Made by a program: the position numbers and the translations under genes. The notes beneath the pieces are model-generated. The model was not told the origin of the DNA, made no database searches, and was given only the letters and a program-made list of their open reading frames with translations. From the NCBI GenBank assembly GCA_020351995.1, contig CP070674.1, forward strand, positions 1,413,307 through 1,477,306: DNA of 64,000 nt, in the 5' to 3' direction. Origin of the DNA: Candidatus Zixiibacteriota bacterium. Its GTDB lineage: Bacteria; Zixibacteria; MSB-5A5; GN15; FEB-12. Positions 21,562 to 44,082 of the stretch are shown piece after piece; the stretch's first letter is position 1, and each line of letters starts with the position of its first letter.

Positions 21562-21635
<74 letters not shown>

Positions 21636-21674
21636 TTTTCTTATTGCAGATTTTCCAGATTTGCCGGCCCGGCG

Positions 21675-22920: not shown

Positions 22921-23352
22921 ATGTACCACATTACAGGATACCATTGGAAAAACGACCGCGGCCTCAGTCTACTCGAAGTGCTGGTGGCAATGATTGTGCT
23001 CGCGGTCGGTATCTTAGGACTGGCACCTATGGTTGTGTTATCTATCGAAGGAAACAGTATATCGCGCGACTTCATCGTCGCCACCGAACTGGCTAAGGAG
23101 CAGCTTGAGCTATATGAAGCGCAGGATGTATTGATGAAGGCCAAGCCGGCACCCGCGCTTCCCACTGATAGTCTCAGTGATACCTTGATTTACTTACCCG
23201 ACGTTGACGGCTATTCGCGCACCGTTACCATTCAGGCCGCTGAAGGAATCAATCCGCCGAATCTTGTGAAAGTGACAATCGACATATCCTGGACAGACAA
23301 GTTAGGCAAGGTCCGCGCGATAAGACACTCAACACTGATGATGAATAACTGA
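22921..23352 (+). CDS. Type IV pilus minor pilin, PilV-like
   Basis: Prepilin N-terminus MYHITGYHWKNDRG/LSLLEVLVAMIVLAVGILGLAPM, the class III signal with Glu at +5. The ORF track starts at GTG 22876; I prefer ATG 22921. Confidence 0.75.
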   Translation: MYHITGYHWKNDRGLSLLEVLVAMIVLAVGILGLAPMVVLSIEGNSISRDFIVATELAKEQLELYEAQDVLMKAKPAPALPTDSLSDTLIYLPDVDGYSRTVTIQAAEGINPPNLVKVTIDISWTDKLGKVRAIRHSTLMMNN

Positions 23353-23368
23353 GGGGGGCAGGTTGAAA

Positions 23369-25188: not shown

Positions 25189-25420
25189 CACTTTTGGCCC
25201 GAATCGCCTCACAGGCACATGGGAACTATAGCAGTATGTGAGGCACGACCGACGGCCCGGGCCCGATGAAAAGGTCGTCGATATTGAGAGTCAATTGGAC
25301 TCGAACGCTTTTAGACAGGTAACATGCGAGGGGCCTTTCTTCCTGGCGGGGGCTGACCAGCCTGCATGACATCAAGCGTGTTACAACAAGATAACGCTGT
25401 AATACGAGGAGTGTGTAGCC

Positions 25421-26587
25421 GTGGGACAACTACACATCAGTCAGCAAGGCGGGGCATTGCTCATCGCTCTGGGCATCATGTTACTGCTCACTATCGCAGC
25501 CCTCATAGCCGTGGATACCGCTCAAACCGATATGGAGCTATCCTTTAACCAGGTTCACTCCAGCCAGTCATTCTATGTCGCCCAGGCCGGGCTTATCCGG
25601 GCTTTCAACGAGATTAACAATGACAATGACTGGACGGCGGGCTTTCTGAACGAGCCGTATGAGGGGGGCTATTACACCGTCATCGTGGTTGACAGCACGG
25701 TCGAGGGTGCTCTGGTAGACACTGTCATTCTTCGCGCCACCGGTAAGATCGGCGACGCCAACACTAATCTCGAGGCACTGGTCGTTCCCGAATACTGGCG
25801 ACCATTTCAGTATGCTATGTTCGGAGACAGCGCCATAGTGATGGACAATAACACCTGTACCGACTCCTATAACTCGGACTCAGGCGACTATGCCTCCACC
25901 ATGGATCTAATCAATGGTGATGTCGCCTCTAACGGCGACCTGGAGTTCATCCATACCGCCGTTGTCGGCGGCGACGCCTCGAGCGCGACCGAAGGAGGCA
26001 TCTTTGTCTGTGCCACCTGCACCGTTTATGGAGATACCACCAGCAAGATCGATCCTCTCCCCGTTCCACCGGTACCGGATTCCGTTTACGATTGGGCACG
26101 GTCGGTCAACGCCGCTCCCGGCGGGCTTTCGGATCCATCCATGTACGATGGCGTCACTCATGCTTTAAACATGAATCTCAACTCAACGCTGACTCTATCC
26201 GGAGGCGTCTATTATTTCTCCGAAATCACAATAGAGAACAATTCCCGGCTGCAGGTTGCGCCTGGCGAAAGCGTCGAAATCTACGTGACCGGCGATATAT
26301 CTATCGGGCAAAACGCGTATGTCAATACTGACGGCGATCCGGCCGACATGGTGATTTTCTCCGATGGCGACTCCCTGCAGCTAGGCATGAGCACGGTGGT
26401 GCACGCCGCCTTTTATGGGCCTTCGGCAATTATGACAATGGAGAACAATTGTCAGTACTATGGATCAATCGTAGCCTACTCCGGCAGCGCCGTAAATGCC
26501 GCCTGTATACACTACGATCGGGCACTCCGGGAAGTGGAAGGCGGAAAAACCGGCGTGATGCATATGATCGCCTGGAAAGAATTATAA
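25421..26587 (+). CDS. Second PilX-N-domain protein (paralog of 23983..25188)
   Basis: 388 aa, GTG start. N-terminus GGALLIALGIMLLLTIAALIAVDTAQTDMELSFNQV. Collinear with its paralog, including the VCATC and FYGPSA...YGSIVA...IHYDRAL blocks. Confidence 0.7.
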   Translation: MGQLHISQQGGALLIALGIMLLLTIAALIAVDTAQTDMELSFNQVHSSQSFYVAQAGLIRAFNEINNDNDWTAGFLNEPYEGGYYTVIVVDSTVEGALVDTVILRATGKIGDANTNLEALVVPEYWRPFQYAMFGDSAIVMDNNTCTDSYNSDSGDYASTMDLINGDVASNGDLEFIHTAVVGGDASSATEGGIFVCATCTVYGDTTSKIDPLPVPPVPDSVYDWARSVNAAPGGLSDPSMYDGVTHALNMNLNSTLTLSGGVYYFSEITIENNSRLQVAPGESVEIYVTGDISIGQNAYVNTDGDPADMVIFSDGDSLQLGMSTVVHAAFYGPSAIMTMENNCQYYGSIVAYSGSAVNAACIHYDRALREVEGGKTGVMHMIAWKEL

Positions 26588-29600: not shown

Positions 29601-32182
29601 GCCGCCGGGTAACCATCGGCGTCGGCATCATAACTATATAATTGTTGATATGTTCCGGTGGTGATCGGGGTCGAGGTAAAGGTCGGCGCGATTCCGGCTA
29701 CCGATATGGTGAAGCTCTGCGGATCGGTACCCGAACTGTTACTGGCTTCAACCACAACATCGTAATCCCCTACGTCACCAGGCGTCCACTGAATCAGCCC
29801 CGTAGCCGGGTCGATGGTCATCCCGGTAGGGTAAGTCGTGAGCGCGAAGGTTGGGGCCGGATTGCCGCTTGCTTCAACATCGTATGTGTATAATTGATTG
29901 TACGTCCCGGTGAGAATAGGAGTCGAGGTGATCACTGGCGCCTCGGCAGGCAGGACCGAGATTGTGAAATTCTGCGGCGTCGTGCCGGCCGAGTTAGTGG
30001 CCTCCAGAACAACGTCGTAGTCACCGTCCGAAGGCGGAGTCCACTGGATAAGACCGGTAATAGGATCGACAGTCATTCCGGCCGGAAAGGTAACCAGAGA
30101 ATAACTGGGCACCGGATACCCGTCAGCATCGGCGTCATAAACATATAGTTCACCGGAAACACCTGTCAGGGGTGGGCTTGTGGTAAACGAAGGGGCGATA
30201 CCGCTGACCGAGATGGTATAGGGCTGATAATCATCGCCCCACGTATTCGAAGCGTTAATGGTAACATCGAAATCGCCAACGTCATCCGGCGTCCATTCTA
30301 CGAGGCCGGTAACCGGATCGATAGTCATTCCCGGCGGTGCCAAAGTAAGTGAGAAATCCGGATCTGGGTCGCCATCGGCGTTGGCGTCATAGCTATACAG
30401 CACACCGTAAGTAGCCGTCGTTACTGGAGTGGACGTGAACATGGGCGCGATTCCGCCGAGGGGACAGTCGATTGGAGCGGGGCCGCCGCGGTGCAGGTAG
30501 TCGATCAAATAGTCAACATCGAGAATATCTACCTGGTCATTGTCATCGGCATCGGCCTCCTGCTCGCAAATCGGTGCCGAGCCGTCTCGAAAGAGATAGT
30601 CGACTATAAAGTCCAGGTCAAGAAGATCGAATTGACCGTTATGGTCGGCATCGCCACGCAATTCACAGCACTCCAGCCATTCAAGCTCGGTGTTGACGTA
30701 TAAATACATTCGCTCACCCACAATTGAGTCAACCCGCACATAGATGCCCGAATAACCATAGTAACTGTCACTGCTCGGATAAGTCTGCGGACCAAACTCG
30801 CTCTGTCCGGGGACATCGGACGAAAAAAGCGCCCCTTTTCTGGTCTCCCAGGGATACCACCATTGGGCGCTGTCGGTCAAACGGCCTTCAGGGTTATAAG
30901 TATAATCCTTGAGCGGGTTGTAACCGGCATCCTCGACGCACACGGCATAGTGGGGATCTAAGGGCGTTCCCTGGTTGAGTGATATAATCTCTTGGGGGTC
31001 GACCAGCGAATCATCAATATGTGTTATCAATAGTCCGCGGTCCAGCACGTCATAACCGAACGTGAGATTGGGATAGAACCATGAGCAAAAATCGGAGTCG
31101 AATTTATCGAACTTACCTGCTGACTGCGGATTTCGGTACTCGAGTAAGAAGTACTCCAGGTCGCTGTCATTGATGGGTATTCTATATAATGAAGAATCTG
31201 CGGTTGTCTCAACATTGTATATGACGAGATCATGATACTCGCCCTCAAGAATGATCGGCTCGATATACCCCAGCCGCACCTTGTTCCAGCCGCAGTAATG
31301 ATTGGCGCTTACCCCGCCCAGCGACAAATAACCGTAGCCATAGTAACCCATTGGATCCCAATCAACAAGCGGATGGTCGTTCTGGTCGTTCGCAATATTA
31401 TAGGTCGATGTCACCAGTTTGCCGTCGTAGTCGTACAGGTCTGCCAGGCCGATGTTATGGCCAACTTCGTGAACAAACACGCGGATACCGCTCCGTACAG
31501 TCTCTCCGCTGAACTGCACCGGGTATATGGGGTCCCGCAGTGGTTTGAGCTCCGGACAGGTGTTCCAGGCGTCCACCTGGACCCGGTCATAGCGGCCCCA
31601 GCCCTGATCACTGGCAGCGGCATAGGACCAGATATCGAGAGGATCCTGGGAATCTTCTTCTCCGACACCGGAACGGATGAAACAGATCGCGTCGGCCTTC
31701 CTATCCTCGTTGCCATCATATAGAGAATAGTCAATGTACGGATCTAATATCTCAAACAGCGAACTGAATGGAAAATACTTTCCAAATGTGGGGCCGGCGT
31801 TGTACCAATCAAATACATCGCCGGTAAGCTTCACCTGGCCATACGAAACCTCATGGATGTAATCGGCCAGAGAACCCTCGGGAAGAACGTCGCGGGAGAA
31901 GAGCAAAGTATCGAAAGCCTGCCATGGTAACGTCCCGGGCCGATCTCCCCATTCCACCAGAATAGCCAGCAGCCTGAGACTGTCTCCCTTAAAGCTTGCC
32001 GCTGAGAGGAGGTCAGCTTGTGTCCCGGCATATCCGTGCCAGGGAAGTCTGCCCCATTGAACCTGGACCTGTGATTCGGGCATATCGAAGACGAGAAAAT
32101 AATCGGGGTCGGAAGCCAGCGCGGGCACGCCAAGGAGTAAGACAAGGCTGCCAATTAGAAGTTTTCTGGGCATTTTCTTCAC
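26660..32182 (-). CDS. Giant secreted protein: M6/InhA-like metalloprotease domain + internal dockerin-like module + 15 tandem He_PIG/cadherin-like Ig repeats
   Basis: 1840 aa with signal peptide MKKMPRKLLIGSLVLLLGVPALA. Zinc site FVHEVGHNIGLADLYDYDG, with HEVGH at 31457..31471. Dockerin-like CCELRGDADHNGQFDLLDLDFIVDYLFRDGSAPICEQEADADDNDQVDILDVDYLIDYLHRGGPAPIDC at 30455..30673. Repeats span 26663..30454. Confidence 0.9.
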   Translation of the reverse strand: MKKMPRKLLIGSLVLLLGVPALASDPDYFLVFDMPESQVQVQWGRLPWHGYAGTQADLLSAASFKGDSLRLLAILVEWGDRPGTLPWQAFDTLLFSRDVLPEGSLADYIHEVSYGQVKLTGDVFDWYNAGPTFGKYFPFSSLFEILDPYIDYSLYDGNEDRKADAICFIRSGVGEEDSQDPLDIWSYAAASDQGWGRYDRVQVDAWNTCPELKPLRDPIYPVQFSGETVRSGIRVFVHEVGHNIGLADLYDYDGKLVTSTYNIANDQNDHPLVDWDPMGYYGYGYLSLGGVSANHYCGWNKVRLGYIEPIILEGEYHDLVIYNVETTADSSLYRIPINDSDLEYFLLEYRNPQSAGKFDKFDSDFCSWFYPNLTFGYDVLDRGLLITHIDDSLVDPQEIISLNQGTPLDPHYAVCVEDAGYNPLKDYTYNPEGRLTDSAQWWYPWETRKGALFSSDVPGQSEFGPQTYPSSDSYYGYSGIYVRVDSIVGERMYLYVNTELEWLECCELRGDADHNGQFDLLDLDFIVDYLFRDGSAPICEQEADADDNDQVDILDVDYLIDYLHRGGPAPIDCPLGGIAPMFTSTPVTTATYGVLYSYDANADGDPDPDFSLTLAPPGMTIDPVTGLVEWTPDDVGDFDVTINASNTWGDDYQPYTISVSGIAPSFTTSPPLTGVSGELYVYDADADGYPVPSYSLVTFPAGMTVDPITGLIQWTPPSDGDYDVVLEATNSAGTTPQNFTISVLPAEAPVITSTPILTGTYNQLYTYDVEASGNPAPTFALTTYPTGMTIDPATGLIQWTPGDVGDYDVVVEASNSSGTDPQSFTISVAGIAPTFTSTPITTGTYQQLYSYDADADGYPAATFSLTTFPTGMTIDPASGLIQWTPDDDGDHNVIVEAANAYGTDIQNFTISVAGIAPTFISSPPTTGVVGVLYSYDAETDGYPAATFALTEFPTGMTIDPATGVVQWTPTEEGDVDVTIEASNAYGLDIQNYTISVSGTPEPPVITSTPVTSVTVGQAYAYDVEATGYPAPTFDLITSPSGMNINSTTGLISWTPGSVGDFDVEVEALNVNGADTQSFVVTVSGVAPSFTSTPILTATYGVQYEYDADATGDPTPTYALLDGPAGMTINSGTGVVRWTPADTGDVDVVIEAINAAGSTQQSYTIGVTGVAPAFTSTPVTTATYGQLYSYDANASGYPAATFALTTYPTGMTIDGNTGVIEWTPDATGDADVVVEATNIYGTDYQSFTISVSGVAPSFTSTPVTTGVTGVLYSYDADADGYPTPTYSLTTYPTGMTINSGTGLVEWTPDSEGDYDVEIEATNTYGTAYQNFTISVSAAPAGAVITSTPVTTATIDQPYTYDVEATGNPAPTFDLITSPSAMKINATTGVITWTPGSIGDYDVEVEAANVNGADTQSFILTVVGIPPTFTSTPITTGTYNVLYEYNADATGEPTPTYSLTTYPAGMTINSGTGLVRWTPSDTGNVDVVIEATNSAGTTPQSFTISVTGVAPAFTSTPVTTGTYGQLYSYDAEAGGYPAATYSLTTYPTGMTIDANTGVVEWTPSDIGDYNVVVEATNIYGTDTQPFTISVSGVAPFLADIPDQVQLLSVGFTEDADATGYPAPTYSLTTYPTGMTIDPITGEIAWTPTGVGDFDVVVEATNAYGTDTDDFVLTIVEVPTITSTAVTTGTYGQLYSYDVEADGYPAPTYALTTKPSGMTVDANTGVIEWTPADVGDYDVTVVAINSYGSDTQSFAITVVGIAPSFTSTPITTGSVGVLYTYDADASGYPAPTYALTTYPSGMTIDPVTGEVEFTPGSSGDYDVVIEATNDYGTDYQSYTINVP
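26663..30454 (-). repeat. 15 tandem coding repeats of 246-258 nt (82-86 aa Ig-like units)
   Basis: Repeat boundaries counted by hand. Consensus: G(V/I)AP.FTSTP.TT.TYG.LYSYDADA.GYPAPTY.LTTYP.GMTID..TG...WTP...GDYDVV.EATN.YGTD.Q.FTISV. Confidence 0.9.
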
Positions 32183-32674: not shown

Positions 32675-32762
32675 TGGTGCCGAAGGGGGGACTCGAACCC
32701 CCACTCCCGTAAAGAGAACTGCGCCCTGAACGCAGCGCGTCTACCAGTTTCACCACTTCGGC
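32675..32762 (-). tRNA. tRNA-Leu (anticodon CAG), CCA encoded
   Basis: Folded by hand. Acceptor GCCGAAG/CTTCGGC, anticodon stem CTGCG/CGCAG with loop TTCAGGG, long variable arm, T arm GGGGG-TTCGAGT-CCCCC, discriminator A and CCA. Confidence 0.9.
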
Positions 32763-32912
32763 ACACGGTGAACCGCGCTAATAATAGTCCAAGACACTAA
32801 GGTTGTCAAGCAAGTTCGCGCGCAGACGCATAAACCCGATATAGCACAACGCCTTTAAGTTACAGAAAAAAGGTTGCCCTCACTCACAGCCAGCCATATA
32901 CTTAACGACTAA

Positions 32913-33923
32913 ATGGATAAGAGACAGGGAACGACGGCAATGAACCTTATGCGCATATGTTGGCGCTGGCTCGGTCCTATCCTTCTGATGCTTATGACCC
33001 ATAATTCCGTTGCGGGTGACGAGGAAGTAATAATCAGAGATCGGGGTTTTGACCGGGAATTCAAAATAAAATATCCTGACGAATGCATATCGTACCAGTT
33101 CGACATCGATTCGCTGCCGTACAGCAAGCTATCCAACATCACCTATTCCGAAAAAACACTTAACGATACATCCGGATTCATTGATGGCGACGGTATTGCC
33201 ATGACCAAATACAGGGGTCGGCTCTACTACCACCCTGTAAACATGTGCCACCGGGCATTTCAGATAGTGGCCGCTTACCGCGAAACCGGGGATTCAACGT
33301 ATCTTCATTTGGCCGAGCGACATGTAAAACGGCTAATAAAGGAAAGCCACGAGTACGATGGAGCTATATACTATACCTATGCGATGAACCACAAGGTTCA
33401 CAGTCAGAACAGAGCCTTGCTAACAGCACCCTGGTACTCCGGTATGGCCCAGGGTGAAATTCTCGGACTGATGGTGCGGATGTTCTGGGCCACCGGTGAC
33501 TCAATATATGTTGAGTATGCACGCAGAACCTTCAGGTCCTTCCTCAGGCCGCGCGGGGGATTCGAGCCCTGGACGGTGTTCGTCGATCATACTGGATGTT
33601 ACTGGATTGAGGAATATCCCACCGAGGATCCGAGCAAGACACTTAATGGATTTATCTATGCTCTCTACGGTGTCTATGATTATTATCTACTGACAAACGA
33701 CGACCAGGTTAAGAAAGTCCTTACCGATTGCCTGAGCACGCTAAAGAACTATATTCCTTCTTACCGGCGTCCCGGACAGGCTTCCTTCTACGGTCTTGAG
33801 TTCCGACATTGGTCTCAGCCCTATCACAAAGTGCACGTTAGGCAGCTCAGACAGCTATATAAGATTAGTAAAGATCAGTTCTTTAATGAGTGGGCCAACA
33901 TTTTCGAGCAGGATTTCCACTGA
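32913..33923 (+). CDS. D-glucuronyl C5-epimerase C-terminal-domain family protein (exported)
   Basis: The blocks APWYSGMAQGEILGLMVRMFWATGD and YWIEEYPTEDPSKTLNGFIYALYGVYDYY match my recollection of the animal heparosan C5-epimerase motifs (WYSAMAQGQ..., EEYPT..., VLNGFMYSLIGLYD). A signal-like segment follows the alternative start at 32940. Confidence 0.75.
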   Translation: MDKRQGTTAMNLMRICWRWLGPILLMLMTHNSVAGDEEVIIRDRGFDREFKIKYPDECISYQFDIDSLPYSKLSNITYSEKTLNDTSGFIDGDGIAMTKYRGRLYYHPVNMCHRAFQIVAAYRETGDSTYLHLAERHVKRLIKESHEYDGAIYYTYAMNHKVHSQNRALLTAPWYSGMAQGEILGLMVRMFWATGDSIYVEYARRTFRSFLRPRGGFEPWTVFVDHTGCYWIEEYPTEDPSKTLNGFIYALYGVYDYYLLTNDDQVKKVLTDCLSTLKNYIPSYRRPGQASFYGLEFRHWSQPYHKVHVRQLRQLYKISKDQFFNEWANIFEQDFH

Positions 33924-34040
33924 GGTGACCGTAATCTCGTACCTGTTGGGAATACGTGGCGTTAAGAGTTAATATCCGCATGAACGGAACCACGGATCGG
34001 GGCCGACAACTTATCTGCTGTCGGGCAATCTTCTTTAGAT

Positions 34041-35207
34041 GTGGGGTCGATTGCTATGATTGAAGTTGCACTTCTTATCGTTATTCTGATGTTCAAATTC
34101 GGCCGCGACCTTTCTGGCCTCTCGTATGATTGGTTGGACCGGGCCCTGATCGGCCTCGAATCTCGCATGCGCATGGTTGGTTGGACGCTGCTTCTCTCGC
34201 TGCTGCTTATTGCCCTGGCTACGGTGTATGCTCGTATCGCCGTCGAATGTACCTATCTCGGTAGGCACTATGCCGCGTTGGCAGAGAACCCCTTTGCTCT
34301 TGGCAGCTCAAACCCGGTCTCATATCGCATATTGACTCCCCTTATCAGCTACTTGATCGGCCTTCGTGGCCAGGGAATCATCATCACCAACCTGCTAATA
34401 TCGGTGGTAATGGTAGCATGCGTTTACATGTATTTCCGCAAAACTGCCCCCCGACCTGGAGACGCTTTTCTGATGTCTACTGTGATCACCTTCTCTCTGG
34501 TGGTGCTGACCTCCATACACTGCGGAGGATACTGCGACATCATGTCCTATCTCCTGATTTTTCTCATGTGGTGGTTTCGTAAGCACCGGACGTTGTTCTA
34601 CCTGATGTTCCTGGCCGGACTCCTTAATCGAGAATCCGTTCTGTTTCTGCTGCCGTGGTTCATTGTTATAAGCCTCGATTCTGACAGACCATGGTATCTT
34701 AGGATTGTGGAGATGATATTTGGCTTCGGCATTACTATCCTCGTTTACTACTTATTCCGTCAGTGGGTAACCTCGGGTGCCGAGATAAAGTACTCTCTGA
34801 GCTATTATCTCGAGCCGTTCGTCACGAACCCACTGCAGAGACTCAAACGGACCGTTTATTATCATTCCCTGGGTCTCTTCTCAGTCTACAAAGTTCTCTG
34901 GGTCTTCCCCTGTGTTGCAGCGCTATCCTGGTGGCGCAACCGGAAGTATGCCTCGCTCGCAAACGTTCTCATCCTATTGTTGTGCGCATGGGCACAGCTT
35001 TTTCTCGCCATTGACACATCCCGTATGTTCACATTAGGTTTCATGGTTATGATTGTTGCCGTGGATGACTTGCTCAAGACCGACTTCATGCACTTTCGAC
35101 GGTGGGCATTCTGGGCCGTGCTGTTTAACCTGATGATTCCTCAAGTCTATACTGCGGGTAAAGTGGTAGAAGTGTGGCAGACTCTCACCACGCACATTTC
35201 GTTATGA
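34041..35207 (+). CDS. Polytopic integral membrane protein, unknown function
   Basis: 388 aa with about 9-10 hydrophobic segments and no soluble domain. GTG start at 34041; an ATG lies at 34056. Confidence 0.6.
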   Translation: MGSIAMIEVALLIVILMFKFGRDLSGLSYDWLDRALIGLESRMRMVGWTLLLSLLLIALATVYARIAVECTYLGRHYAALAENPFALGSSNPVSYRILTPLISYLIGLRGQGIIITNLLISVVMVACVYMYFRKTAPRPGDAFLMSTVITFSLVVLTSIHCGGYCDIMSYLLIFLMWWFRKHRTLFYLMFLAGLLNRESVLFLLPWFIVISLDSDRPWYLRIVEMIFGFGITILVYYLFRQWVTSGAEIKYSLSYYLEPFVTNPLQRLKRTVYYHSLGLFSVYKVLWVFPCVAALSWWRNRKYASLANVLILLLCAWAQLFLAIDTSRMFTLGFMVMIVAVDDLLKTDFMHFRRWAFWAVLFNLMIPQVYTAGKVVEVWQTLTTHISL

Positions 35208-35234
35208 CTGCTCTAAGAATCCAGTTGATCCTGA

Positions 35235-37541
35235 TTAATCGAAAGTATAGAGTTCAGCTATTAGACGGTCGCGGTGAAGGAAGCCCAGCGAAAATCTGAG
35301 CGCGTCAGTCAACCGTGGCGCAGCTCGACAACAGTAGTAAAGGTCCGCCTTCTTCCATTTGTAACTGGGTGGGTCAGGATAGAAATCGAAACTGAGTTCC
35401 TTACCGGTTTCGCCCCGAACCTGAAGCGATATTTTGAGGGTGTCGTCAAGATCATACCGCGGCTGAAAACAGAAAAGGAAATACGTTGAGTCGTTGTCAT
35501 TAACCACAAAACCTGCAGGCATGGAAATACTGTCACCGAAATCGATAGCTCTGTCCGTAATACGCCTCCAATCCTTCATACCAGTGCCAAGGTATTCACT
35601 GACAAGTGTTTGTCCGTCCGGATCGAGAAAAGTTTGCAGGTGGGCAGCTCTGACTAGAAAAGCCAGACTATCCCTTTGCGAGGTGAAGCGCGGACTGGTC
35701 CACTCAATACCCTGCACATCCGGAATGTCCACGACTTTGTACCGGCAAGGCACGCCAACGTTCTGAAACAGGCGGGTGTCCGAAACCACGGCCTGATCGA
35801 TCCTGAAGATCCTCGTGGTGAAACGATTAGGGTAATTACTCAGATTAGCATATACCTCCAGATTCCGACCCTGCTTACGCGGCAGATAGTAGTCAACCGT
35901 ATCGAAAACGTTGTGTCGAAGACCAATATTGAATAAACAAGGATCTGACAGGTCATGAAGAAGATAAAGCAGATTGTGCCTCTCCAGATACTCACACGCG
36001 GGATGACCATAATGCTCATTACGGGCTATGAATGTGTACACCGGATGAAAAGAGAATATCCAGTCGTAGCCGGACAGAGCTACTCTGCCTGTTATATCAG
36101 CACTCAACTCGTCCTCCAGCGGCACGGGTGGCAGGGTCGTTTTCCGGGCGACCTGGATGTCCTTATCGGTGGTATGCGCGTGAAAATTGTGGATGAAGAC
36201 GAGCAGAAGAACCGCCGCCAGTACGACCATGACGTTGTTTCTTCTGTTCCTCCATATGTTGGACCTTACAAGTGCCGCCGCAGCCAGACCGATGAAAGGT
36301 CCGCCGGCCATGGCGACGAACTCCCTCGATTTCACCAGATTGATCGGCCTGTCGATATAACCAAGCAACGAGCCCGCCAGAAAATATACAACCACGCTTC
36401 CTATCAACAGGAGCAATCCTTTGTGAAGTGAGCGGCGGGAGCGACGTAATGAAAAGATCAGTGCGGCCAGAAACAAAATTCCCGGTAGCGTGAACTCCAC
36501 AAAGGGAAAATCCAGTCCCGGCGATCCCAGGTGATGCCAGCCGCCGCGGGAGCGGTCTATCCCGTTTTCAATGATGGATCTCAGAACCGGAAACCAGTAG
36601 ATAGCACTGACCAACGCCGATACCGCGAGTACGCCGAGAGCATTCACAAATCTGAAGGGATGATTATCCTTTAAGAAAGTCCACCCCCTCAGTATTGTCG
36701 TTCTGATCAGTAGGAGAAATGCGCCTATGAAAAAAGGATAGAAATATGTCATGAACAAACAGCCCCCGATCAATCCTCCCGCCAGATAGTATTTCCAGTT
36801 GCTCCTGGGCCGTCTCACCCGCTCAATATAGTAGAGCCACCAGGGGACGAATAATGTGTTGGCGAGAAATGCATGCGGAGCCTTGAACGGGAATATAGCC
36901 GGCAACGAACAGAACAAGTAGGTCGCGAAGGTGACCATGATGGCTTGAAACGGGGTCACGAGCCTTCGCCACATGTAATAAAGCAGGAAAGGACCGATCA
37001 GGTAAATCCCCATCGAAGCGATTTTGACCATCTTGTAGTTCTCAACCGAAAACAACCGGGAATAGAGTGAGAGAAGATAGTAGACCACGGGAGGATAGAA
37101 CGCCGGCAGATCTCGGTAATAAAAATCTCCAAGATGCTTGAATGTCGCGAATTTCAGAATCATGGTCATCCGGAATCCCTGATCGCCGGAGTAACCGTTG
37201 AGTCCAAACGGCGTGCCATCAAACATTAAGCTAACTGTAATAAAACCATACAGTGAAAATGCAATTGCCAGTAAGAACGATTTCAGCCTCCAGCTGACCC
37301 TGGCCACCCAGAGTGTTATAACAATCAAGAAGAACGACAGACCCCAGGCATCAAGCAGAATGAGGTCTCTGATCAGGACGTCTTCGTGAAAAACCTTTGG
37401 GACGTGCGAATATCGGAAAAGATAGAGGGCAAAATAAAGATATCCTATCGCCAGGATTAGTGGCAGAACCGTCACTTGAGCCTGCAGCTTCTGTTTAAGG
37501 GATGCCGTCCAGCGAAAACGACTCTTATTCATCGCCCTCAT
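35235..37541 (-). CDS. Large polytopic membrane protein, probable GT-C-fold glycosyltransferase (AftA-like by recollection)
   Basis: 768 aa with more than 10 TM segments in the first about 440 aa and a C-terminal soluble domain. The block YSGDQGFRMTMILKF...YYRDLPAFYPPVVYYL resembles the N-terminal motif I recall from mycobacterial arabinofuranosyltransferase AftA. Unverified. Confidence 0.55.
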   Translation of the reverse strand: MRAMNKSRFRWTASLKQKLQAQVTVLPLILAIGYLYFALYLFRYSHVPKVFHEDVLIRDLILLDAWGLSFFLIVITLWVARVSWRLKSFLLAIAFSLYGFITVSLMFDGTPFGLNGYSGDQGFRMTMILKFATFKHLGDFYYRDLPAFYPPVVYYLLSLYSRLFSVENYKMVKIASMGIYLIGPFLLYYMWRRLVTPFQAIMVTFATYLFCSLPAIFPFKAPHAFLANTLFVPWWLYYIERVRRPRSNWKYYLAGGLIGGCLFMTYFYPFFIGAFLLLIRTTILRGWTFLKDNHPFRFVNALGVLAVSALVSAIYWFPVLRSIIENGIDRSRGGWHHLGSPGLDFPFVEFTLPGILFLAALIFSLRRSRRSLHKGLLLLIGSVVVYFLAGSLLGYIDRPINLVKSREFVAMAGGPFIGLAAAALVRSNIWRNRRNNVMVVLAAVLLLVFIHNFHAHTTDKDIQVARKTTLPPVPLEDELSADITGRVALSGYDWIFSFHPVYTFIARNEHYGHPACEYLERHNLLYLLHDLSDPCLFNIGLRHNVFDTVDYYLPRKQGRNLEVYANLSNYPNRFTTRIFRIDQAVVSDTRLFQNVGVPCRYKVVDIPDVQGIEWTSPRFTSQRDSLAFLVRAAHLQTFLDPDGQTLVSEYLGTGMKDWRRITDRAIDFGDSISMPAGFVVNDNDSTYFLFCFQPRYDLDDTLKISLQVRGETGKELSFDFYPDPPSYKWKKADLYYCCRAAPRLTDALRFSLGFLHRDRLIAELYTFD

Positions 37542-37761
37542 CCCGCATTATCGAATGCCGCATTTCATCACCCTGATATATAAAATTCGCCCTTCTTGGT
37601 TAAAACACTTTTGGACTGTGGCTGGAGGAGACAGGGGTCGTATTCGCGCCACACCAATTTCACAAAAGTAAACTCCCTTCACTTAATGCTGTCAAGAAAA
37701 TACTTACCTCAATCTGTACTGCAGCCTCATGCCGCCCGGAACTGGCCACTGAGTTTAACGC

Positions 37762-37790
37762 TTGACAGAATCACCGGCGATCAGTAATCT
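37762..37790 (+). promoter_or_regulatory. Promoter candidate TTGACA-N17-TAATCT for the 37961.. operon
   Basis: Hexamers and spacer read by eye. Lies about 170 nt upstream of the small ORF. Confidence 0.35.
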
Positions 37791-37960
37791 ACTGTGCAAT
37801 GGTTGCTACGCCGGTTAACTTTAATCAGCGACACCCTCGGCGCCGGTCTGCAATCTGGAATCGATTGACATATAATGCCAGCGATGGCGGCTTACTATTG
37901 ACGCCTTGGTATTCGCCCCGCACAAGAACAGTTGCCGAAAGGGAGGAGAGTAATAGATTG

Positions 37961-38191
37961 ATGACGCGAAGAATAATCTACATCACACTGGCCTCAGGGG
38001 TGATAGTAATAACAATGCCCGACCATGCCCACGCTTATATAGACCCATCAACTGGCAGCTATATTCTGCAGATCCTGCTCGCGGGACTACTTGGTGCTCT
38101 CTTCACTCTCAAAATCTTTTGGAGAAATATCAAGGGATTCTTATCCAGATTTCTCGGTAAAGACAGACAGCACGATGTCGGAGCAGACTGA
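37961..38191 (+). CDS. Small membrane protein (76 aa): signal-like segment + IDPSTGS motif + TM + basic tail
   Basis: A GGGAGGAGAG RBS lies 10 nt upstream of ATG 37961. Sequence: MTRRIIYITLASGVIVITMPDHAHAYIDPSTGSYILQILLAGLLGALFTLKIFWRNIKGFLSRFLGK... The 3' end overlaps the methyltransferase start by 17 nt. Confidence 0.5.
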   Translation: MTRRIIYITLASGVIVITMPDHAHAYIDPSTGSYILQILLAGLLGALFTLKIFWRNIKGFLSRFLGKDRQHDVGAD

Positions 38192-39560
38192 AAATCAAGT
38201 CAACGGTTCCTTTCGCGACCCCAGTGGATTCGTATTCTCAAGATCCGGGACTCTGTACCGTCAGGTCAATGCATGCTACAGCCAAAATTATGATCTCTTG
38301 ATGGATTCAGGGCTGTACGCAAGACTTGTGAAAGATAAGCTGCTCGTGGCTCACGAGGAGATCGAAGACCACAGTGAGCGTAAGGAACAGGTCTACAGGG
38401 TCTTAAAGCCGACGCGGGTCAACTTCATATCATACCCGTTTGAGTGGTGCTTCGGCCAATTGAAGGATGCTGCCCTGGCAACACTTGGAATTCAACAGCG
38501 AGCAATGGAATATGGAATGGTGCTGAAGGACGCCAGCGCCTACAATATTCAGTTCGTTGAGGGAAATCCCCTACTGATTGACACGCTGTCCTTTGATCGA
38601 TACGAAGAAGGCCATCCCTGGATTGCGTATAAGCAGTTCTGCCAGCATTTCCTGGCGCCGTTAACACTCATGAAATATTGCGACGTCAGGCTGGGTCAGA
38701 TGCTGCGAACCCATCTGGACGGGATACCGCTCGATTTGACCAGTAGCCTGCTACCGAGAAAGACCTGGCTATCTTTCCCACTGTTAACCAATATTCACCT
38801 TCATGCCAGGAGTCAGATAAAGTACGCGTCGAAGTCCCGCGGCACCAGAGTAAATGGGATGAGTCGCCGGGCTCTTATGGGACTTATCGATACCCTTCTC
38901 TCCGCCGTTAAGCGTCTCAGTTGGCAGATAAAAAATAGTACCTGGGCCGACTATTACGAAAACACCAACTACGAGATCCAGGCGCTTGAGCAGAAAGAGA
39001 AATTGGTTGCCGATTTCCTCGATCTTATTAAACCCAAATTGGTTTGGGATTTGGGCGCGAACACCGGCCGCTTCAGTCGTATAGCGGCCCGCAGAGGAAT
39101 AAACACTATAGCTTTCGACTTTGACCCGGCCGCTGTCGAGATCAATTATCGCGAGTGCCGGAAAAACTCGGACACCAGGGTCCTTCCACTGGTGATCGAT
39201 CTAACCAACCCCAGTCCCGGGATTGGCTGGGAACACAGAGAGAGGATGTCACTTATCGACCGCGGTCCTGCTGACTGCGCCATGGCACTGGCCCTGATAC
39301 ACCACCTCGCCATAGGCAACAATTTGCCCCTGGGTCGAATAGCTCGATTCCTCCGTTCAATCTGCAGCACGCTGATAATAGAATTTGTCCCTAAGGAAGA
39401 TTCGCAGGTGCAGCGATTGCTCAGGTCGCGCGAAGACATCTTCCCACAATACACCCCTTCCGGCTTCGAGCGCAGTTTTGAGCCTTTCTTCTCAATCGAA
39501 AAAAAAGCCGGCATCTCCGACAGCAGCAGATCCTTATACTATATGAAGGCAAGGCCCTGA
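38175..39560 (+). CDS. Class I SAM-dependent methyltransferase (461 aa, long N-terminal extension)
   Basis: SAM-binding block VWDLGANTGRFSRIAARRGINTIAFDFD and N-terminal FRDPSGFVF motif. I chose ATG 38175 (MSEQTENQ...) rather than the ORF-track start at 38091. Confidence 0.8.
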   Translation: MSEQTENQVNGSFRDPSGFVFSRSGTLYRQVNACYSQNYDLLMDSGLYARLVKDKLLVAHEEIEDHSERKEQVYRVLKPTRVNFISYPFEWCFGQLKDAALATLGIQQRAMEYGMVLKDASAYNIQFVEGNPLLIDTLSFDRYEEGHPWIAYKQFCQHFLAPLTLMKYCDVRLGQMLRTHLDGIPLDLTSSLLPRKTWLSFPLLTNIHLHARSQIKYASKSRGTRVNGMSRRALMGLIDTLLSAVKRLSWQIKNSTWADYYENTNYEIQALEQKEKLVADFLDLIKPKLVWDLGANTGRFSRIAARRGINTIAFDFDPAAVEINYRECRKNSDTRVLPLVIDLTNPSPGIGWEHRERMSLIDRGPADCAMALALIHHLAIGNNLPLGRIARFLRSICSTLIIEFVPKEDSQVQRLLRSREDIFPQYTPSGFERSFEPFFSIEKKAGISDSSRSLYYMKARP

Positions 39561-39561
39561 C

Positions 39562-41526
39562 ATGAAACACAAACTACCCGTACATCCAATTCTGTTCTGC
39601 ATTTTTCCCGTGCTCTTTCTTTATGCCCAGAACGCCACTGAGATGGAACTTGGTGACCTGATATTACCGCTTCTGCTCATCTGCGCCAGTACCGTGGCAC
39701 TCACCGTTGTTATCGGCCTTTTGTTGCGCTCTCTTATGAAAGGCGCTCTGCTCTCCACGGTGATAGTCTTTCTGTTCTTTTCGTTTGGGCATGCCGTAAA
39801 AATTATTCCCGAGTTCACACACCAGATGGCGGAATCCGTTTTCGGGCCAAGTTTGCTGGTACTGATAACCTTTATAGTCATCATTTACCTGACATCTCGA
39901 ATCATCTCACGGACACGCCGAGACCTCGGTTCCGCTACAGCGTGCCTGAATTGGCTCGGCACACTGCTGGTAATTTTTCAGGTCGTTCACATAGGGTTAA
40001 CGGTAGTTCCACGCCAGAGTAACCCAGCCAATACGGATGAGACAAAGATCTGGACGGAGAATGCAGGCAGAACAGCTACCGCTCCCCAGAACTCCTATCC
40101 CGACATTTACTATATTGTACTGGACGGCTATGGCCGTAGTGACATCCTCCGCGAAATATTTGCCTTCGACAACTCCGATTTTATTGACCGACTTCGCCAA
40201 CTGGGCTTCTATGTAGCAGATAGCAGTTATGCCAATTACCCACAAACGATATCTTCCCTTGGCGCATCATTGAACATGGCTTATGTCGATGATCTGGGAA
40301 GCTTTCTACGGACCTCCGGGGACAGGGTCCCGCTGATGAACAAACTTCAGAAAAATGCAGTGGTCAAGTATCTAAGAGAGGCCGGCTATGTCGTGGTCTC
40401 ATTTGAATCCGGGTACAGCGCCACCAAAATGAAAGAAGCTGACACGGTCCTTTCACCGGATTGGAGTTCCAGTGAATATCAGAATATTCTTCTTTCTACA
40501 ACGCCTCTTCCGCTATTCGCTGAAAGCCGACAATCACCGTTTTTCCAGCATAGACAGCGCATTCGGTATATTATGGACAAGCTGGCGGTCCTATCAGGTA
40601 TGAACTTCCCGAAGTTTGTTTTCGCCCATGTCGTTTCCCCTCACCCGCCATTTGTGTTCGATGCGGACGGCAGTCCGGTAAGACCCAAACGTGAATGGTC
40701 CCTTAACGACGGTTCGCACTTGATAAAGGACTCTCTGGACAGGATCGAATACATTGATGGGTACAGACGTCAGATCACACACATGACACAGGTAATTTTG
40801 GAGACAGTAACGGAGATACTCGAAGTGTCCGGTGATAACCCGCCGGTGATTATCCTCCAGTCCGACCACGGACCCGGCTCCGGACTTAACTGGTATTATG
40901 CCCGACAGACCAACCTTCGTGAACGCCTCTCTATTCTTAATGCCTATTATATTCCGGGCCTTCAACCCGGTGTCATTTACGATGAGATCACCCCGGTGAA
41001 CACCTTCCGTATAGTGTTGAACAAGTGTTTCGGTGCCAATCTGGATCTCTTACCGGATAAACACTTCTACGCATCATGGAATCAACCCTACACCTTTCAA
41101 CCCGTTTCAAAGCTGTTAGGCGGCAGCGCATACGAGCATCTATTGAAGCAATATTCGTACCTCTGCCCCGATACCGTGGCTGCGGAGGAATTACTTGAGC
41201 CCGTCCAGTACGATGCTAGAATAAACGACGAAAATATACATTTCATGTGCGAGGCAGGACTATGTATAGCGTTCAATTTCAAGCAGCGGACTTCACGATT
41301 TGAAGTCAGCATTGACTATGACGACGATTACGAGTTTCAGTTTCGAGCCGGACAGAAGGTATTGGCTGTCGATACGGTACGTCATAGGTGGATTAAGGCG
41401 AAGGGGATCCGCATTGATACTGTATTGGTGCCCCAGGATGCCTCAAAGCATGGCTTCGACAATATTGTCATATACCCCTCCGGTGGCAATGGCTGGTACG
41501 CCATTGGACATCTCATGCCAATCTAG
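39562..41526 (+). CDS. Membrane-anchored alkaline-phosphatase-superfamily transferase (LtaS/sulfatase-fold)
   Basis: 654 aa with about 5 N-terminal TM segments. Then DIYYIVLDGYGRSD (metal-binding Asp), YPQTISSLGASL (candidate Thr nucleophile), VVSPHPPF and ILQSDHGPG. Confidence 0.75.
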   Translation: MKHKLPVHPILFCIFPVLFLYAQNATEMELGDLILPLLLICASTVALTVVIGLLLRSLMKGALLSTVIVFLFFSFGHAVKIIPEFTHQMAESVFGPSLLVLITFIVIIYLTSRIISRTRRDLGSATACLNWLGTLLVIFQVVHIGLTVVPRQSNPANTDETKIWTENAGRTATAPQNSYPDIYYIVLDGYGRSDILREIFAFDNSDFIDRLRQLGFYVADSSYANYPQTISSLGASLNMAYVDDLGSFLRTSGDRVPLMNKLQKNAVVKYLREAGYVVVSFESGYSATKMKEADTVLSPDWSSSEYQNILLSTTPLPLFAESRQSPFFQHRQRIRYIMDKLAVLSGMNFPKFVFAHVVSPHPPFVFDADGSPVRPKREWSLNDGSHLIKDSLDRIEYIDGYRRQITHMTQVILETVTEILEVSGDNPPVIILQSDHGPGSGLNWYYARQTNLRERLSILNAYYIPGLQPGVIYDEITPVNTFRIVLNKCFGANLDLLPDKHFYASWNQPYTFQPVSKLLGGSAYEHLLKQYSYLCPDTVAAEELLEPVQYDARINDENIHFMCEAGLCIAFNFKQRTSRFEVSIDYDDDYEFQFRAGQKVLAVDTVRHRWIKAKGIRIDTVLVPQDASKHGFDNIVIYPSGGNGWYAIGHLMPI

Positions 41527-41584
41527 TCTTCCCTATAACCCGGGGGTGACCGCTTCCGGTATTGAGTAGCATCGGAGCCCCCAC

Positions 41585-41611
41585 AAAAAAACCGCCCCCA
41601 AAAGAGGGCGG
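41585..41611 (-). terminator. Intrinsic terminator after rpoD
   Basis: On the minus strand, CCGCCC-tcttttgg-GGGCGG is followed by seven T. Confidence 0.75.
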
Positions 41612-41637
41612 CTCAATGTCCTAAAAGCAAACTAATC

Positions 41638-42579: not shown

Positions 42580-44082
42580 CTATGGCCGAATCACCTTTCG
42601 GGCAACGGTGCCATCGGGCTCCACGACTATCAAAGCCACTCGCTCCTTGACAGGCAGTTCCCGGCTGATGCGGTCAATATCTTCAATCGACGAAACCGAC
42701 TTATTATTCACCTGCACGATCACCGTTCCCATGGAAATCGACGACCGGTCGGCTGGTCCGCCCCGGGCAACTCGGCGCACATAGACACCGTCAATTCGCT
42801 CGACTGCCAGCGCCTGGGCAACCGCTTCCGTAAACGTCACCAGTTCCATCCCCAGCCAACTTTTAACCTCAAGATTACCTGAGGCATCCCCCTCTGTCGA
42901 GCCGTCCATGGAGGCCAGGAAACTGTCTCGGTCACCGATCACCGTCTTCAAGGTCATCCTTTTACCGTTGCGCACAATCTCTACCGGATAGGGTTGACCG
43001 GCGCGCAACTGCGAAACCGCCACCGAAAGCTGGCTGATGTTGTCAACCGGATGATTATCCACACTCAGTATGATATCACCGGCCTTTATACCAGCCCGCT
43101 CCGCCGGAGAGTTCGCAAAAACAGAATCGATCTTCACACCACGCATGGCATCCAAACCCTGGCGCCGCGCCTCCTGTTCCGTCAGATTGCCCAGAATCAC
43201 ACCAAGCCATCCCCGGCTGACTTTGCCGGTAGCAATCAAATCGGGTACCACCGTCCGGGCCAGATTGATCGGAATCGCGAATCCAATTCCCACCGAGCCG
43301 CCCGTGGGACTGGAGATAGCCGCGTTGACCCCGATGCACTCGCCGCGAATATTGAGCAACGGACCCCCGGAATTCCCCAGGTTGATCGAGGCATCGGTCT
43401 GAATATAATCCTGATAGGTCGGTGTTTCCCGCCGACCGAAATTCAGGTTGCTTCGACCCTTGGCCGAGACCACACCCACCGTCACGGATCGAAATAGACC
43501 CTGCTCAGGAAAAGGATTACCGATAGCGATCGCCCAACTTCCGACTTTGATGGCTTCCGAGTCGCCGAAAGGTATAACTGTTATCTGCTCTTCCGGTTCA
43601 ATCTTTATCACGGCCAGGTCTGTCAGCGGGTCAGCACCGACCAACCGCGCCTCATACTGATAACCGCTGGCTGTCGTTACATTGATCTGCTGGGACCCCT
43701 CAATGACATGGTTGTTGGTGAGAATGTAACCGTCATCGCGAAAGAAGAAGCCCGAACCCGCCGACGTTGAATAAGACGGGCCATGATGCCACCACGGTAA
43801 ATCCTCCAGCTTGGTACGAGCCGATATGTGAACAACCGCCTGCTGGGCATTCTCGACCACCGCTACGAAAGGCGACTCCAGATCACCGCCGACATTTACC
43901 ACCGGATAAGCCAGAAATGAATCAGGATCCACGGGATCCTGGGCCACCGATTTGGTGGTCAGGTCGAGGTTGGAGGAGATAATAATCCCCGCGACGAGGC
44001 AAACGGCCGCGACGATTATGACAACAAGAAAGCGTTGCCCCCTGGATGCGCTGTTTTCAGGGGAGAGAGAGCGCGAGTTCAA
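42580..44082 (-). CDS. htrA: HtrA/DegP-family periplasmic serine protease with two PDZ domains
   Basis: 500 aa. The catalytic triad context is intact: TNNHVIEG, LTDLAVIKIE and GNSGGPLLN. TTG start in the ORF track, so the start is uncertain. Confidence 0.9.
   Translation of the reverse strand: MNSRSLSPENSASRGQRFLVVIIVAAVCLVAGIIISSNLDLTTKSVAQDPVDPDSFLAYPVVNVGGDLESPFVAVVENAQQAVVHISARTKLEDLPWWHHGPSYSTSAGSGFFFRDDGYILTNNHVIEGSQQINVTTASGYQYEARLVGADPLTDLAVIKIEPEEQITVIPFGDSEAIKVGSWAIAIGNPFPEQGLFRSVTVGVVSAKGRSNLNFGRRETPTYQDYIQTDASINLGNSGGPLLNIRGECIGVNAAISSPTGGSVGIGFAIPINLARTVVPDLIATGKVSRGWLGVILGNLTEQEARRQGLDAMRGVKIDSVFANSPAERAGIKAGDIILSVDNHPVDNISQLSVAVSQLRAGQPYPVEIVRNGKRMTLKTVIGDRDSFLASMDGSTEGDASGNLEVKSWLGMELVTFTEAVAQALAVERIDGVYVRRVARGGPADRSSISMGTVIVQVNNKSVSSIEDIDRISRELPVKERVALIVVEPDGTVARKVIRP

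Follow-up and report, generated by a model that had tools for sequence, protein, structure and literature searches.

We analyzed a 64,000-nucleotide stretch (the window) of contig CP070674.1 from a Candidatus Zixiibacteriota bacterium (GCA_020351995.1), in which six genes lie between a tRNA-Leu(CAG) gene and a sigma-70 (RpoD-like) gene. The region is probably the form taken in the window by a variable locus for envelope glycans, which many Zixibacteria carry between htrA-sigma70 and tRNA-Leu(CAG). Its six genes are three separable units and not one foreign island. Unit A is a gene for a D-glucuronyl C5-epimerase-like protein; unit B is a pair of genes for membrane proteins of the GT-C fold, one of which resembles AftA; and unit C is a trio of genes for a membrane peptide, a kinase-like/methyltransferase protein, and a membrane protein of the alkaline-phosphatase superfamily (the sulfatase-fold protein). 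Zixibacteria are uncultured, and their cell surface is uncharacterised; a fixed genome address between the main sigma gene and tRNA-Leu(CAG) would encode glycan diversity in these bacteria. The epimerase and the AftA-like GT-C belong to known kinds of protein. The accessible literature contains no description of the slot architecture, of the compact GT-C-fold family, or of the trio, and two families without a Pfam model are brought out here, namely the compact GT-C-fold protein and the kinase-like/methyltransferase protein of the conserved three-gene module.

One genome per species was scanned with an alignment of the AftA-like GT-C, the window proteins were mapped onto the returned loci (L numbers below), and the open reading frames (ORFs) were clustered. 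The AftA-like GT-C gene adjoined htrA-sigma70 in 18 scanned loci and additionally in L168 and L169, oriented each time as it is in the window. It followed a conserved backbone of panB, dNK, HPPK, folB, aminotransferase, and aldolase genes, and the GT-C region ended in tRNA-Leu(CAG) in 14 loci, two of which were contig fragments without the sigma gene. The sigma-70 protein shared 91–100% amino-acid identity in most related loci. Because the AftA-like GT-C gene lies between htrA-sigma70 and tRNA-Leu(CAG) in approximately 18 loci, both the slot and this gene are regarded as an old feature of the phylum.

Slot intervals spanned 1.3 kb (the closest relative, L002) to 8.9 kb (the window, where the interval is larger than any other seen). 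L030 carried the GT-C alone, L012 and L027 carried the GT-C with a homolog of the second, 388-residue GT-C-fold protein, and L018, L019, and L032 carried a 640–650-residue membrane protein, a 388-residue homolog, and the GT-C. Other partners were PMT_2 enzymes (GT-Cs of the PMT and PMT_2 families being frequent), a YfhO-like protein, a GT2 enzyme (L017), and a 421-residue membrane protein, and the epimerase occupied the slots of L002, L024, and L035 in addition to that of the window. The diversity of the slot seems to come mainly from periplasmic GT-C enzymes and not from the usual cytoplasmic glycosyltransferases. Some slots held two AftA-like GT-C genes, either as tandem paralogs (L025:7681-12223 and L006:100-3764) or with a PMT_2-type gene and the tRNA between the two copies (L037:2227-7370). 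The 640–650-residue proteins form a polytopic membrane family (L018:6892-8844, L015:8085-10013, L022:1494-3440, and relatives) with the N-terminal motif AWLCDDAFISFR, and they gave no Pfam match even at relaxed thresholds.

The similarity of the GT-C proteins did not track that of the flanking housekeeping genes. The Spearman coefficient of pairwise GT-C identity was 0.04 against HtrA and 0.12 against the aminotransferase, compared with 0.65 for the housekeeping pair, and 917 of 2000 permutations in a Mantel test reached the observed value; the comparison of GT-C with housekeeping genes comprised 10 loci, including three close relatives, with identities of 38–50%, at which saturation could mimic exchange. 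Since the GT-C does not follow its neighbors, the contents of the slot look as if they had been exchanged among lineages, and the description of the region as variable or acquired would be partly right in this weaker sense. In our reading, the slot is an old, fixed, phylum-wide locus with shuffled contents that follows an O-antigen-like logic, and not a tRNA-targeted island.

An earlier note on this DNA, made from the letters and a list of ORFs, had read the six genes as consistent with one horizontally acquired island at tRNA-Leu, the products of which would jointly remodel a uronic-acid polymer by epimerisation of glucuronic acid (GlcA) to iduronic acid (IdoA). The region does have the lowest guanine-plus-cytosine (G + C) content of the window and a tRNA at one end, five of its six genes are missing in the closest relative, and the family call for the epimerase is strong. 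We nevertheless consider this explanation highly improbable, and synteny largely refutes it. The closest relative found, L002 (GCA_975963145.1), is collinear with the window on both sides by blastn, with identities of 100% for the sigma factor, 87% for HtrA, and 72% for the epimerase. Its gene order is tRNA-Leu(CAG), epimerase, common terminator, and sigma70, and window positions 33924-41576 are replaced by 48 bp, as determined from blastn collinearity and alignment of the junction. Because L002 keeps the epimerase beside the tRNA and lacks only the other five genes, the epimerase lies outside the indel, the tRNA is untouched, and the six genes cannot be treated as one acquired unit. The indel boundary is 1.2 kb from the tRNA, with the conserved epimerase gene in between. 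Most likely, the L002 lineage lost all but the epimerase, the polarity being assigned by parsimony.

Further observations point the same way. The AftA-like GT-C stands at this position throughout the phylum, and the trio is common without epimerase or GT-C. No integrase was found in the region among ORFs or Pfam matches, and a repeat search of 32.5–41.8 kb returned only short chance matches, with no direct or inverted repeat flanking the indel; the earlier note had itself remarked that it saw neither an integrase nor a flanking direct repeat. Tyrosine-recombinase integrases do occur in relatives (L021:4522-5619, L024:12558-13670, and L032:12518-13624), where they start approximately 110 nucleotides beyond tRNA-Leu(CAG) and away from the slot. 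The L024 integrase matched Phage_integrase at E = 7e-33, and those of L021 and L032 were assigned by clustering with it. Since these genes lie beyond the tRNA and outside the slot, tRNA-Leu(CAG) is in some relatives a true integration site that faces the other way. The idea of a tRNA-targeted island thus failed on three marks: no integrase, no flanking direct repeats such as a copy of the tRNA 3' end, and no insertion directly at the tRNA. Synteny at tRNA-Leu in relatives agreed with it in that five genes are absent from L002, but not in that the slot and its GT-C are phylum-wide.

The base composition of the region also argues little for a foreign origin. The G + C content was 49.5–49.7%, compared with 52.6% in the rest of the window, making this the lowest 7.65-kb stretch; none of 399 non-overlapping windows of sequence was as low, and the lowest elsewhere was 50.7%. 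The dip inferred in the earlier note from hand tallies is therefore real and the profile is not flat, but at about 3 points it is smaller than those tallies implied. It was mainly due to first codon positions (0.516 versus 0.566), whereas the G + C content of third codon positions (GC3) was 0.582 versus 0.613, only 0.6 standard deviations below other genes, and the gene lowest in G + C was the epimerase gene (48.2%), although it is the conserved one. Because first codon positions are shifted, GC3 barely is, and the conserved epimerase gene is the lowest, the dip is weak evidence of foreign origin and largely an effect of amino-acid composition. It fits exported and membrane proteins of differing amino-acid make-up.

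The positions of the six genes between tRNA-Leu(CAG) and the sigma-70 gene were borne out by ORF analysis and ARAGORN, and the domains expected in the earlier note were all present: C5-epim_C (PF06662) in the epimerase (E = 1.9e-40; 138.8 bits against a cutoff of 23.3), AftA_N (PF12250) in the GT-C (E = 9.4e-19; 67.9 bits against 26.7), and Sulfatase (PF00884) in the sulfatase-fold protein (27.9 bits against 25). A scan of NCBIfam added no match for any of the six proteins. Later starts of the epimerase, 388-residue protein, and GT-C genes, giving 327, 383, and 765 residues, respectively, are suggested by full-length-identical database entries. Exact-sequence look-up with the 327-residue form of the epimerase located an identical 9.5-kb Logan contig, and that with the 336-residue epimerase ORF and the 765-residue GT-C found no match. 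Homologs of the epimerase, the GT-C, and the 388-residue protein came mostly from metagenome-assembled Candidatus Zixiibacteriota genomes. Hydropathy and the positive-inside rule, together with the signal-like N-terminus and the homology with AftA, predict that the epimerase, the GT-C, and the sulfatase-fold enzyme face outward. This predicted topology upholds the earlier claim that three of the four putative enzymes are extracytoplasmic, and with it the general notion of periplasmic or surface glycan remodelling.

The epimerase aligned with human GLCE (6HZZ; phmmer E = 4e-14) with EEYPT, the Tyr of ASFYG, and the YH motif in register. The numbering of the 6HZZ construct is offset by 90 residues from the native protein, and we take the aligned residues to be the GLCE catalytic residues Glu499 and Tyr500 (EEYPT), Tyr560 (ASFYG), and Tyr578 (YH). 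The N-terminus is signal-like in hydropathy and ends in NSVA before GD, a cleavage site that is our own reading. Unit A is thus predicted to be an exported GLCE-type epimerase with its catalytic residues intact. A sub-threshold match (E = 2e-4) of residues 118–148 to the catalytic domain of GH127 beta-L-arabinofuranosidase, which is also precomputed for many homologs, probably reflects the common alpha/alpha-barrel fold and is curious beside an arabinofuranosyltransferase-like gene. A second epimerase paralog (53–62% identity) was found at L001:10001-10984, L003:10001-10960, and L005:10001-11017, with urocanase/amidohydrolase flanks and upstream of lptE. Its neighbors resemble histidine-utilisation genes, and in L005 it lies end to end with a PMT_2 GT-C. 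GCA_975963145.1 carries both epimerase paralogs.

Homologs with the PF06662 domain occur in many bacteria and archaea, often with signal peptides, vary by type, and lie in O-antigen or capsule clusters; listed candidates include those of Escherichia coli O112ab, Shigella boydii 15, the Vibrio cholerae glycan loci, and Bermanella marisrubri (Raedts et al., 2011; PMC3068255). Since such genes were catalogued in 2011 (PMC3068255), the family is not rare in bacteria as the earlier note had supposed, though demonstrated activity is. The window epimerase is a further candidate for a bacterial GlcA-to-IdoA enzyme and may be of practical interest for heparin-like polymers. We know of only one bacterial GlcA-to-IdoA candidate that has been tested, and epimerase activity of the Bermanella marisrubri protein was reportedly demonstrated in a later paper. 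The archaeal epimerase Agl32 was considered as a close analogue and dropped, because, according to the paper on it, its structure has little in common with that of GLCE (PMC13308652).

For the AftA-like GT-C of unit B, a profile of the family matched AftA of Mycobacterium tuberculosis (8IF8), with an alignment that spans membrane and C-terminal domains alike (E = 4.6e-25 overall; 2.3e-5 for the C-terminal domain). The AftA_C domain was precomputed for most homologs and remained below threshold for the window protein itself. In AftA, Asp128 is the catalytic base, and Arg132 is its essential partner (PMC10265970). The equivalent residues of the GT-C family, D119 and R123, were invariant and at least 90% conserved, respectively, and the Ca2+ ligand Glu134 of AftA was not conserved. 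This protein is the constant occupant of the slot, with the catalytic Asp and Arg predicted by alignment to be kept. No genes of the decaprenyl-phospho-arabinose pathway were found in the 33–41.5 kb region, the part of the window that was scanned for them.

The second protein of unit B, 383 residues long from its later start, had 66 homologs, of which the named members were from Zixibacteria except for one metagenome-assembled genome labelled Acidoferrum. It matched no Pfam or NCBIfam model, and a direct sequence search of the PDB returned only noise. Its AlphaFold model had a predicted local distance difference test score (pLDDT) of 92.8, and the top PDB folds retrieved with Foldseek were nearly all GT-C proteins (STT3, Pmt4, ALG12, Pmt1/2, DPY19, ALG3, and ArnT) together with the glycosylphosphatidylinositol-transamidase subunit PIG-U; probabilities reached 1.00 and TM-scores 0.50, and the E-values were modest, at 5e-3 and weaker. 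The model thus assigns this protein to a new compact GT-C-fold family. Its invariant acidic residues are D161, E193, and D320. Because no conserved acidic residue was present in the first periplasmic loop (residues 60–105), the usual site of the GT-C catalytic Asp, the protein may be a non-catalytic partner of the GT-C. The genes of the two proteins are convergent, and a homolog of the 383-residue family adjoined the AftA-like GT-C in seven other loci.

The GT-C enzymes could alternatively glycosylate proteins, namely the 1840-residue repeat protein or the pilin-like proteins encoded nearby. In such a scheme, akin to PMT-type O-mannosylation or the glycosylation of pilins, the epimerase and the phosphotransferase would modify the protein-bound glycan. 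PMT and PMT_2 enzymes are frequent occupants of the slot, and immediately past the tRNA both the window and L002 encode a giant protein with He_PIG repeats and pilin-like proteins. The giant protein is not conserved as a neighbor elsewhere: past the tRNA, other loci carry integrases or unrelated genes. AftA, the nearest characterised relative of the constant GT-C, acts on a polysaccharide (PMC10265970). Protein glycosylation is therefore regarded as unlikely, and decoration of an envelope glycan is preferred.

The trio of unit C is a tightly coupled operon, because the methyltransferase gene overlaps the peptide gene by 17 nucleotides and the sulfatase-fold gene starts one base past the methyltransferase stop codon. 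A Shine–Dalgarno-like sequence, GGGAGGAG, precedes the start of the peptide gene, and a promoter scan of the intergenic region of the peptide-led operon found no more sites than in shuffled sequence. The peptide has a signal-like N-terminus, an AYIDPSTGS motif, one transmembrane helix, and a basic tail. Pfam searches at relaxed thresholds found no match for the peptide, the kinase-like domain, or the C-terminal domain that the sulfatase-fold protein carries, and direct PDB sequence searches with the methyltransferase or the sulfatase-fold protein gave only noise, so that profiles and models were needed.

The 461-residue protein (UCG62928.1 in NCBI), described earlier as an S-adenosylmethionine (SAM) methyltransferase, does have a methyltransferase fold in its model but proved to be a two-domain protein, with an N-terminal protein-kinase-like domain (approximately residues 10–250) and a C-terminal class I SAM methyltransferase domain (approximately residues 270–461). 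Methyltransf_23 scored 20.1 bits, under the cutoff of 27, and the fold was later confirmed by the AlphaFold model (pLDDT 91.3). The best PDB fold was WbdD (E = 2.5e-8); PAK1 kinase domains, over approximately 290 columns, and many class I methyltransferases were matched as well. In the kinase-like half, the conserved D119-x4-N124-x11-D136 has the spacing of the kinase catalytic loop and metal-binding Asp, which are D166, N171, and D184 in PKA. The family is large, with 6242 cluster representatives at E ≤ 1e-3 and at least 1892 at E ≤ 1e-30.

The sulfatase-fold protein has approximately five hydrophobic segments followed by a soluble domain. T229 aligned with the formylglycine Cys of sulfatases in the stretch Y-P-Q-T-I-S-S-L; this stretch lacks the sulfatase C/S-x-P-x-R motif, with no Pro or Arg at the aligned position. 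In the family, D188, H356, H361, and D435 were invariant, and T229 was at least 90% conserved. Because Thr229 stands at the nucleophile position, Pro-x-Arg is absent, and D188, H356, H361, and D435 are conserved, the protein is predicted to be an alkaline-phosphatase-superfamily member of the phosphoryl-transfer type with an LtaS/EptA-like layout. The earlier assignment as an LtaS/sulfatase-fold transferase was therefore right in fold and layout, but no specific family was matched.

This layout raises the possibility of lipid A or lipopolysaccharide-core modification in the manner of ArnT and EptA, in which the GT-C would add a sugar from a polyprenyl-phosphate donor, the alkaline-phosphatase-fold enzyme would add phosphoethanolamine, and surface charge would be tuned. 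The pairing of a GT-C with a sulfatase-fold protein of five transmembrane segments mirrors ArnT/EptA, ArnT is among the fold matches of the 383-residue protein, and EptA (4kav) is a weak match to the sulfatase-fold profile. Nevertheless, no EptA- or ArnT-specific match was obtained in Pfam or NCBIfam, the slot does not regularly hold a sulfatase-fold protein, and, in our view, the variability of the slot and the epimerase would be left unexplained. Lipid A modification is accordingly considered improbable, and we retain the reading of a variable envelope-glycan locus.

The sulfatase-fold protein carries an extra C-terminal domain of approximately 130 residues (nucleotides ~41119-41523). The 28 downstream homologs measured were 486–550 residues long and lacked this domain, and two in genome loci had 530 and 535 residues. 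The domain matched (E = 1e-14 to 2e-8) the C-termini of the 640–650-residue membrane proteins that fill slots elsewhere in Zixibacteria, and these slot proteins share only their last ~130 residues with the window protein. The C-terminus of the GT-C was also considered as sharing this domain and showed no similarity. Because the domain is common to other slot occupants and absent from the homologs of the trio, it suggests that the third protein of the trio has been retargeted to the local glycan by a slot-specific C-terminal domain.

A metagenome scan with the methyltransferase alignment retrieved at least 596 relatives, and 80 loci were mapped. In 51 of 70 metagenome loci, AY[ILV]D[PA]G[ST]G was encoded no more than 400 nucleotides upstream of the methyltransferase gene, and this peptide motif was found in L086 and L087 too. 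Of 59 loci with sufficient flanking sequence, 44 had a gene for a sulfatase-fold homolog directly downstream in the same orientation. The epimerase, the 383-residue protein, and the AftA-like GT-C were absent from all 80 metagenome loci. The flanking genes were unrelated between loci, and the same trio was present in a Desulfovibrio genome and one other genome. The trio is thus an autonomous module that is widespread outside Zixibacteria and abundant in sediment and groundwater metagenomes. A literature search on the trio and on Zixibacteria glycan loci returned nothing relevant in the accessible literature.

Several loci show variant settings of the methyltransferase gene. In L095:1-8026, genes for canonical Sulfatase-domain proteins flank it on both sides, and genes for GDP-mannose 4,6-dehydratase, a second epimerase/reductase, and Acyl_transf_3 come next; the downstream membrane sulfatase-domain protein differs from that of the trio. 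In L121:423-6715, it lies between ManC-TopA and a 329-residue gene product. An uncharacterised protein of 329–354 residues follows the methyltransferase gene in several loci, including L121, and ManC is encoded two genes upstream in three. The operon in L022:1-7295 consists of genes for a PMT_2 enzyme, a 648-residue membrane protein, the peptide, and the kinase-like/methyltransferase protein, inside which the contig ends. This operon and the AftA-like GT-C gene are divergent, tRNA-Leu comes after the latter, and the operon represents a second way in which the first two genes of the trio are joined with the slot.

Gene content, folds, operon structure, conserved catalytic residues, synteny, and co-occurrence are observations; the substrates, the chemistry, and a single polymer for all three units are what we infer. 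A glycan assembled elsewhere would reach the periplasm, where the epimerase would abstract the C5 proton of a uronic acid in the polymer, most likely for GlcA-to-IdoA or a related epimerisation. The GT-C enzymes may attach sugars, taken from polyprenyl-phosphate-linked donors, at the periplasmic face, and the alkaline-phosphatase-fold enzyme may add, transfer, or trim a phosphate-linked substituent on the outer face, while the cytoplasmic kinase-like/methyltransferase protein would prepare the donor or cap a precursor. Because no cytoplasmic glycosyltransferase, polyprenyl-phosphate-sugar synthase, or flippase is encoded in the region, the locus would decorate a glycan made elsewhere rather than build one.

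Several points weigh against this reading. The epimerase was found in only 4 of approximately 20 slots and has a paralog elsewhere beside urocanase, so that its link to the GT-C is loose. None of the six proteins has a known substrate or product, and lying side by side is not in itself proof of one polymer shared by units A, B, and C. Loss in L002, as opposed to gain in the lineage of the window, is assigned by parsimony. The sulfatase-fold family shows only weak similarity to solved structures (sulfatases, E = 2e-4; EptA 4kav, E = 0.45). To these are added the modest fold-match E-values and the missing first-loop acidic residue of the 383-residue protein, and the small set of loci behind the exchange comparison.

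A wider reading is offered only tentatively, as a possibility that we hold to be less probable than the locus itself. The trio may be a widespread, undescribed three-component envelope-modification system with a possible two-step phospho/methyl route to a donor or cap, which in Zixibacteria would be retargeted by the C-terminal domain, and the rpoD-to-tRNA-Leu interval may be a phylum-wide, serotype-like locus made up almost entirely of GT-C enzymes. The cytoplasmic kinase-like/methyltransferase protein would produce a donor or cap bearing phosphate and methyl groups, comparable to the methyl phosphate made by WbdD, and the membrane enzyme would install or process it outside.

The coordinates of the features are collected in Table 1. 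Beyond tRNA-Leu lies a gene for a giant repeat protein of 1840 residues (26660-32182, minus strand), which has an ortholog of 1757 residues in L002 (L002:3958-9231) with He_PIG and PKD-type immunoglobulin-like repeats and is probably a surface adhesin. It is followed by a pilin/pseudopilin-like cluster (~22876-26587, plus strand; L002:214-3879), in which N_methyl, PilX_N, pAdhesive_15, and DUF7305 domains were found in the L002 region. Two genes of this cluster, encoding 388–401 residues, are paralogs of each other.

Table 1. Positions of the slot genes and neighboring features in the window
Feature	Position	Strand	Basis or remark
tRNA-Arg(ACG), second tRNA in the window	21561-21636	+	
tRNA-Leu(CAG)	32675-32762	-	ARAGORN; conserved outer boundary of the variable slot
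GLCE-like C5-epimerase ORF	32913-33923 (longest); 32940-33923 (327 residues)	+	PF06662
Five-gene segment, 7.65 kb	33924-41576		48 bp instead in closest relative L002
Polytopic membrane protein	34041-35207 (388 residues); 34056-35207 (383 residues)	+	No Pfam match; GT-C-fold model
AftA-like (GT85-type) GT-C	35235-37541 (768 residues); from 37532 (765 residues)	-	AftA_N
Intergenic region from which the GT-C gene and the peptide-led operon diverge	37533-37960		Sequence reading
76-residue membrane peptide	37961-38191	+	Sequence, hydropathy
461-residue kinase-like/methyltransferase protein	38175-39560	+	AlphaFold model, fold matches
654-residue alkaline-phosphatase-superfamily protein with approximately five transmembrane segments	39562-41526	+	PF00884, hydropathy
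Terminator-like GC-rich hairpin, 3' of the sigma-70 gene	41589-41614	-	Conserved in L002; inner indel edge
Sigma-70 (RpoD-like) gene, 284 residues	41638-42492	-	Sigma70 r1.2, r2, r3, r4; conserved inner slot boundary
htrA/degP-type protease gene	42580-44082	-	Conserved backbone

The components of the locus can be compared with known systems. Prokaryotic PF06662 homologs and animal GLCE are alike in the domain, in a catalytic domain C-terminal to a signal peptide, in the catalytic Glu and Tyr residues, and in a type-variable glycan-gene setting. The window epimerase, at 327 residues, is shorter than animal GLCE and lacks the N-terminal domains of GLCE, and its neighbors are GT-C enzymes rather than wbb-type transferases of the cytoplasm. 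The GT-C resembles AftA (GT85, 8IF8), a priming arabinofuranosyltransferase, in that both domains align and the equivalents of Asp128 and Arg132 are conserved. It differs in having approximately 120 extra C-terminal residues and no Glu134, and its host is a Gram-negative-type bacterium of the FCB group.

The kinase-like/methyltransferase protein is comparable to WbdD of E. coli O9a, which makes the methyl-phosphate O-antigen cap, because a eukaryotic-like kinase and a class I methyltransferase are combined in one cytoplasmic protein and some members are encoded near GDP-mannose genes. The order of domains in WbdD is methyltransferase, kinase, and coiled-coil, whereas the window protein has the kinase-like domain first and then the methyltransferase, and ends at residue 461 without a coiled-coil ruler. 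It is also accompanied by a peptide upstream and usually by a membrane alkaline-phosphatase-fold partner, with no ATP-binding cassette (ABC) transporter nearby. The sulfatase-fold protein shares with LtaS, EptA, and OpgB approximately five N-terminal transmembrane helices, an extracytoplasmic PF00884-type domain, a putative Thr nucleophile, and Asp/His metal ligands, and differs in giving no family-specific model match, in its marginal sequence similarity (E = 0.45 to EptA), and in the extra C-terminal domain.

As a whole, the locus can be compared with the three-component Gtr (GtrA/GtrB/Gtr*) and GT136 pentofuranose systems of periplasmic glycan modification (PMC11127046), in which GT-C enzymes act on the outer face after polymerisation and the loci are variable in a serotype-like manner; a GT2 enzyme is likewise encoded in some related slots (L017). 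Compared with these systems, the window locus has no polyprenyl-phosphate-sugar synthase or flippase, and it combines two GT-C-fold proteins with an epimerase and a phosphotransferase-type enzyme.

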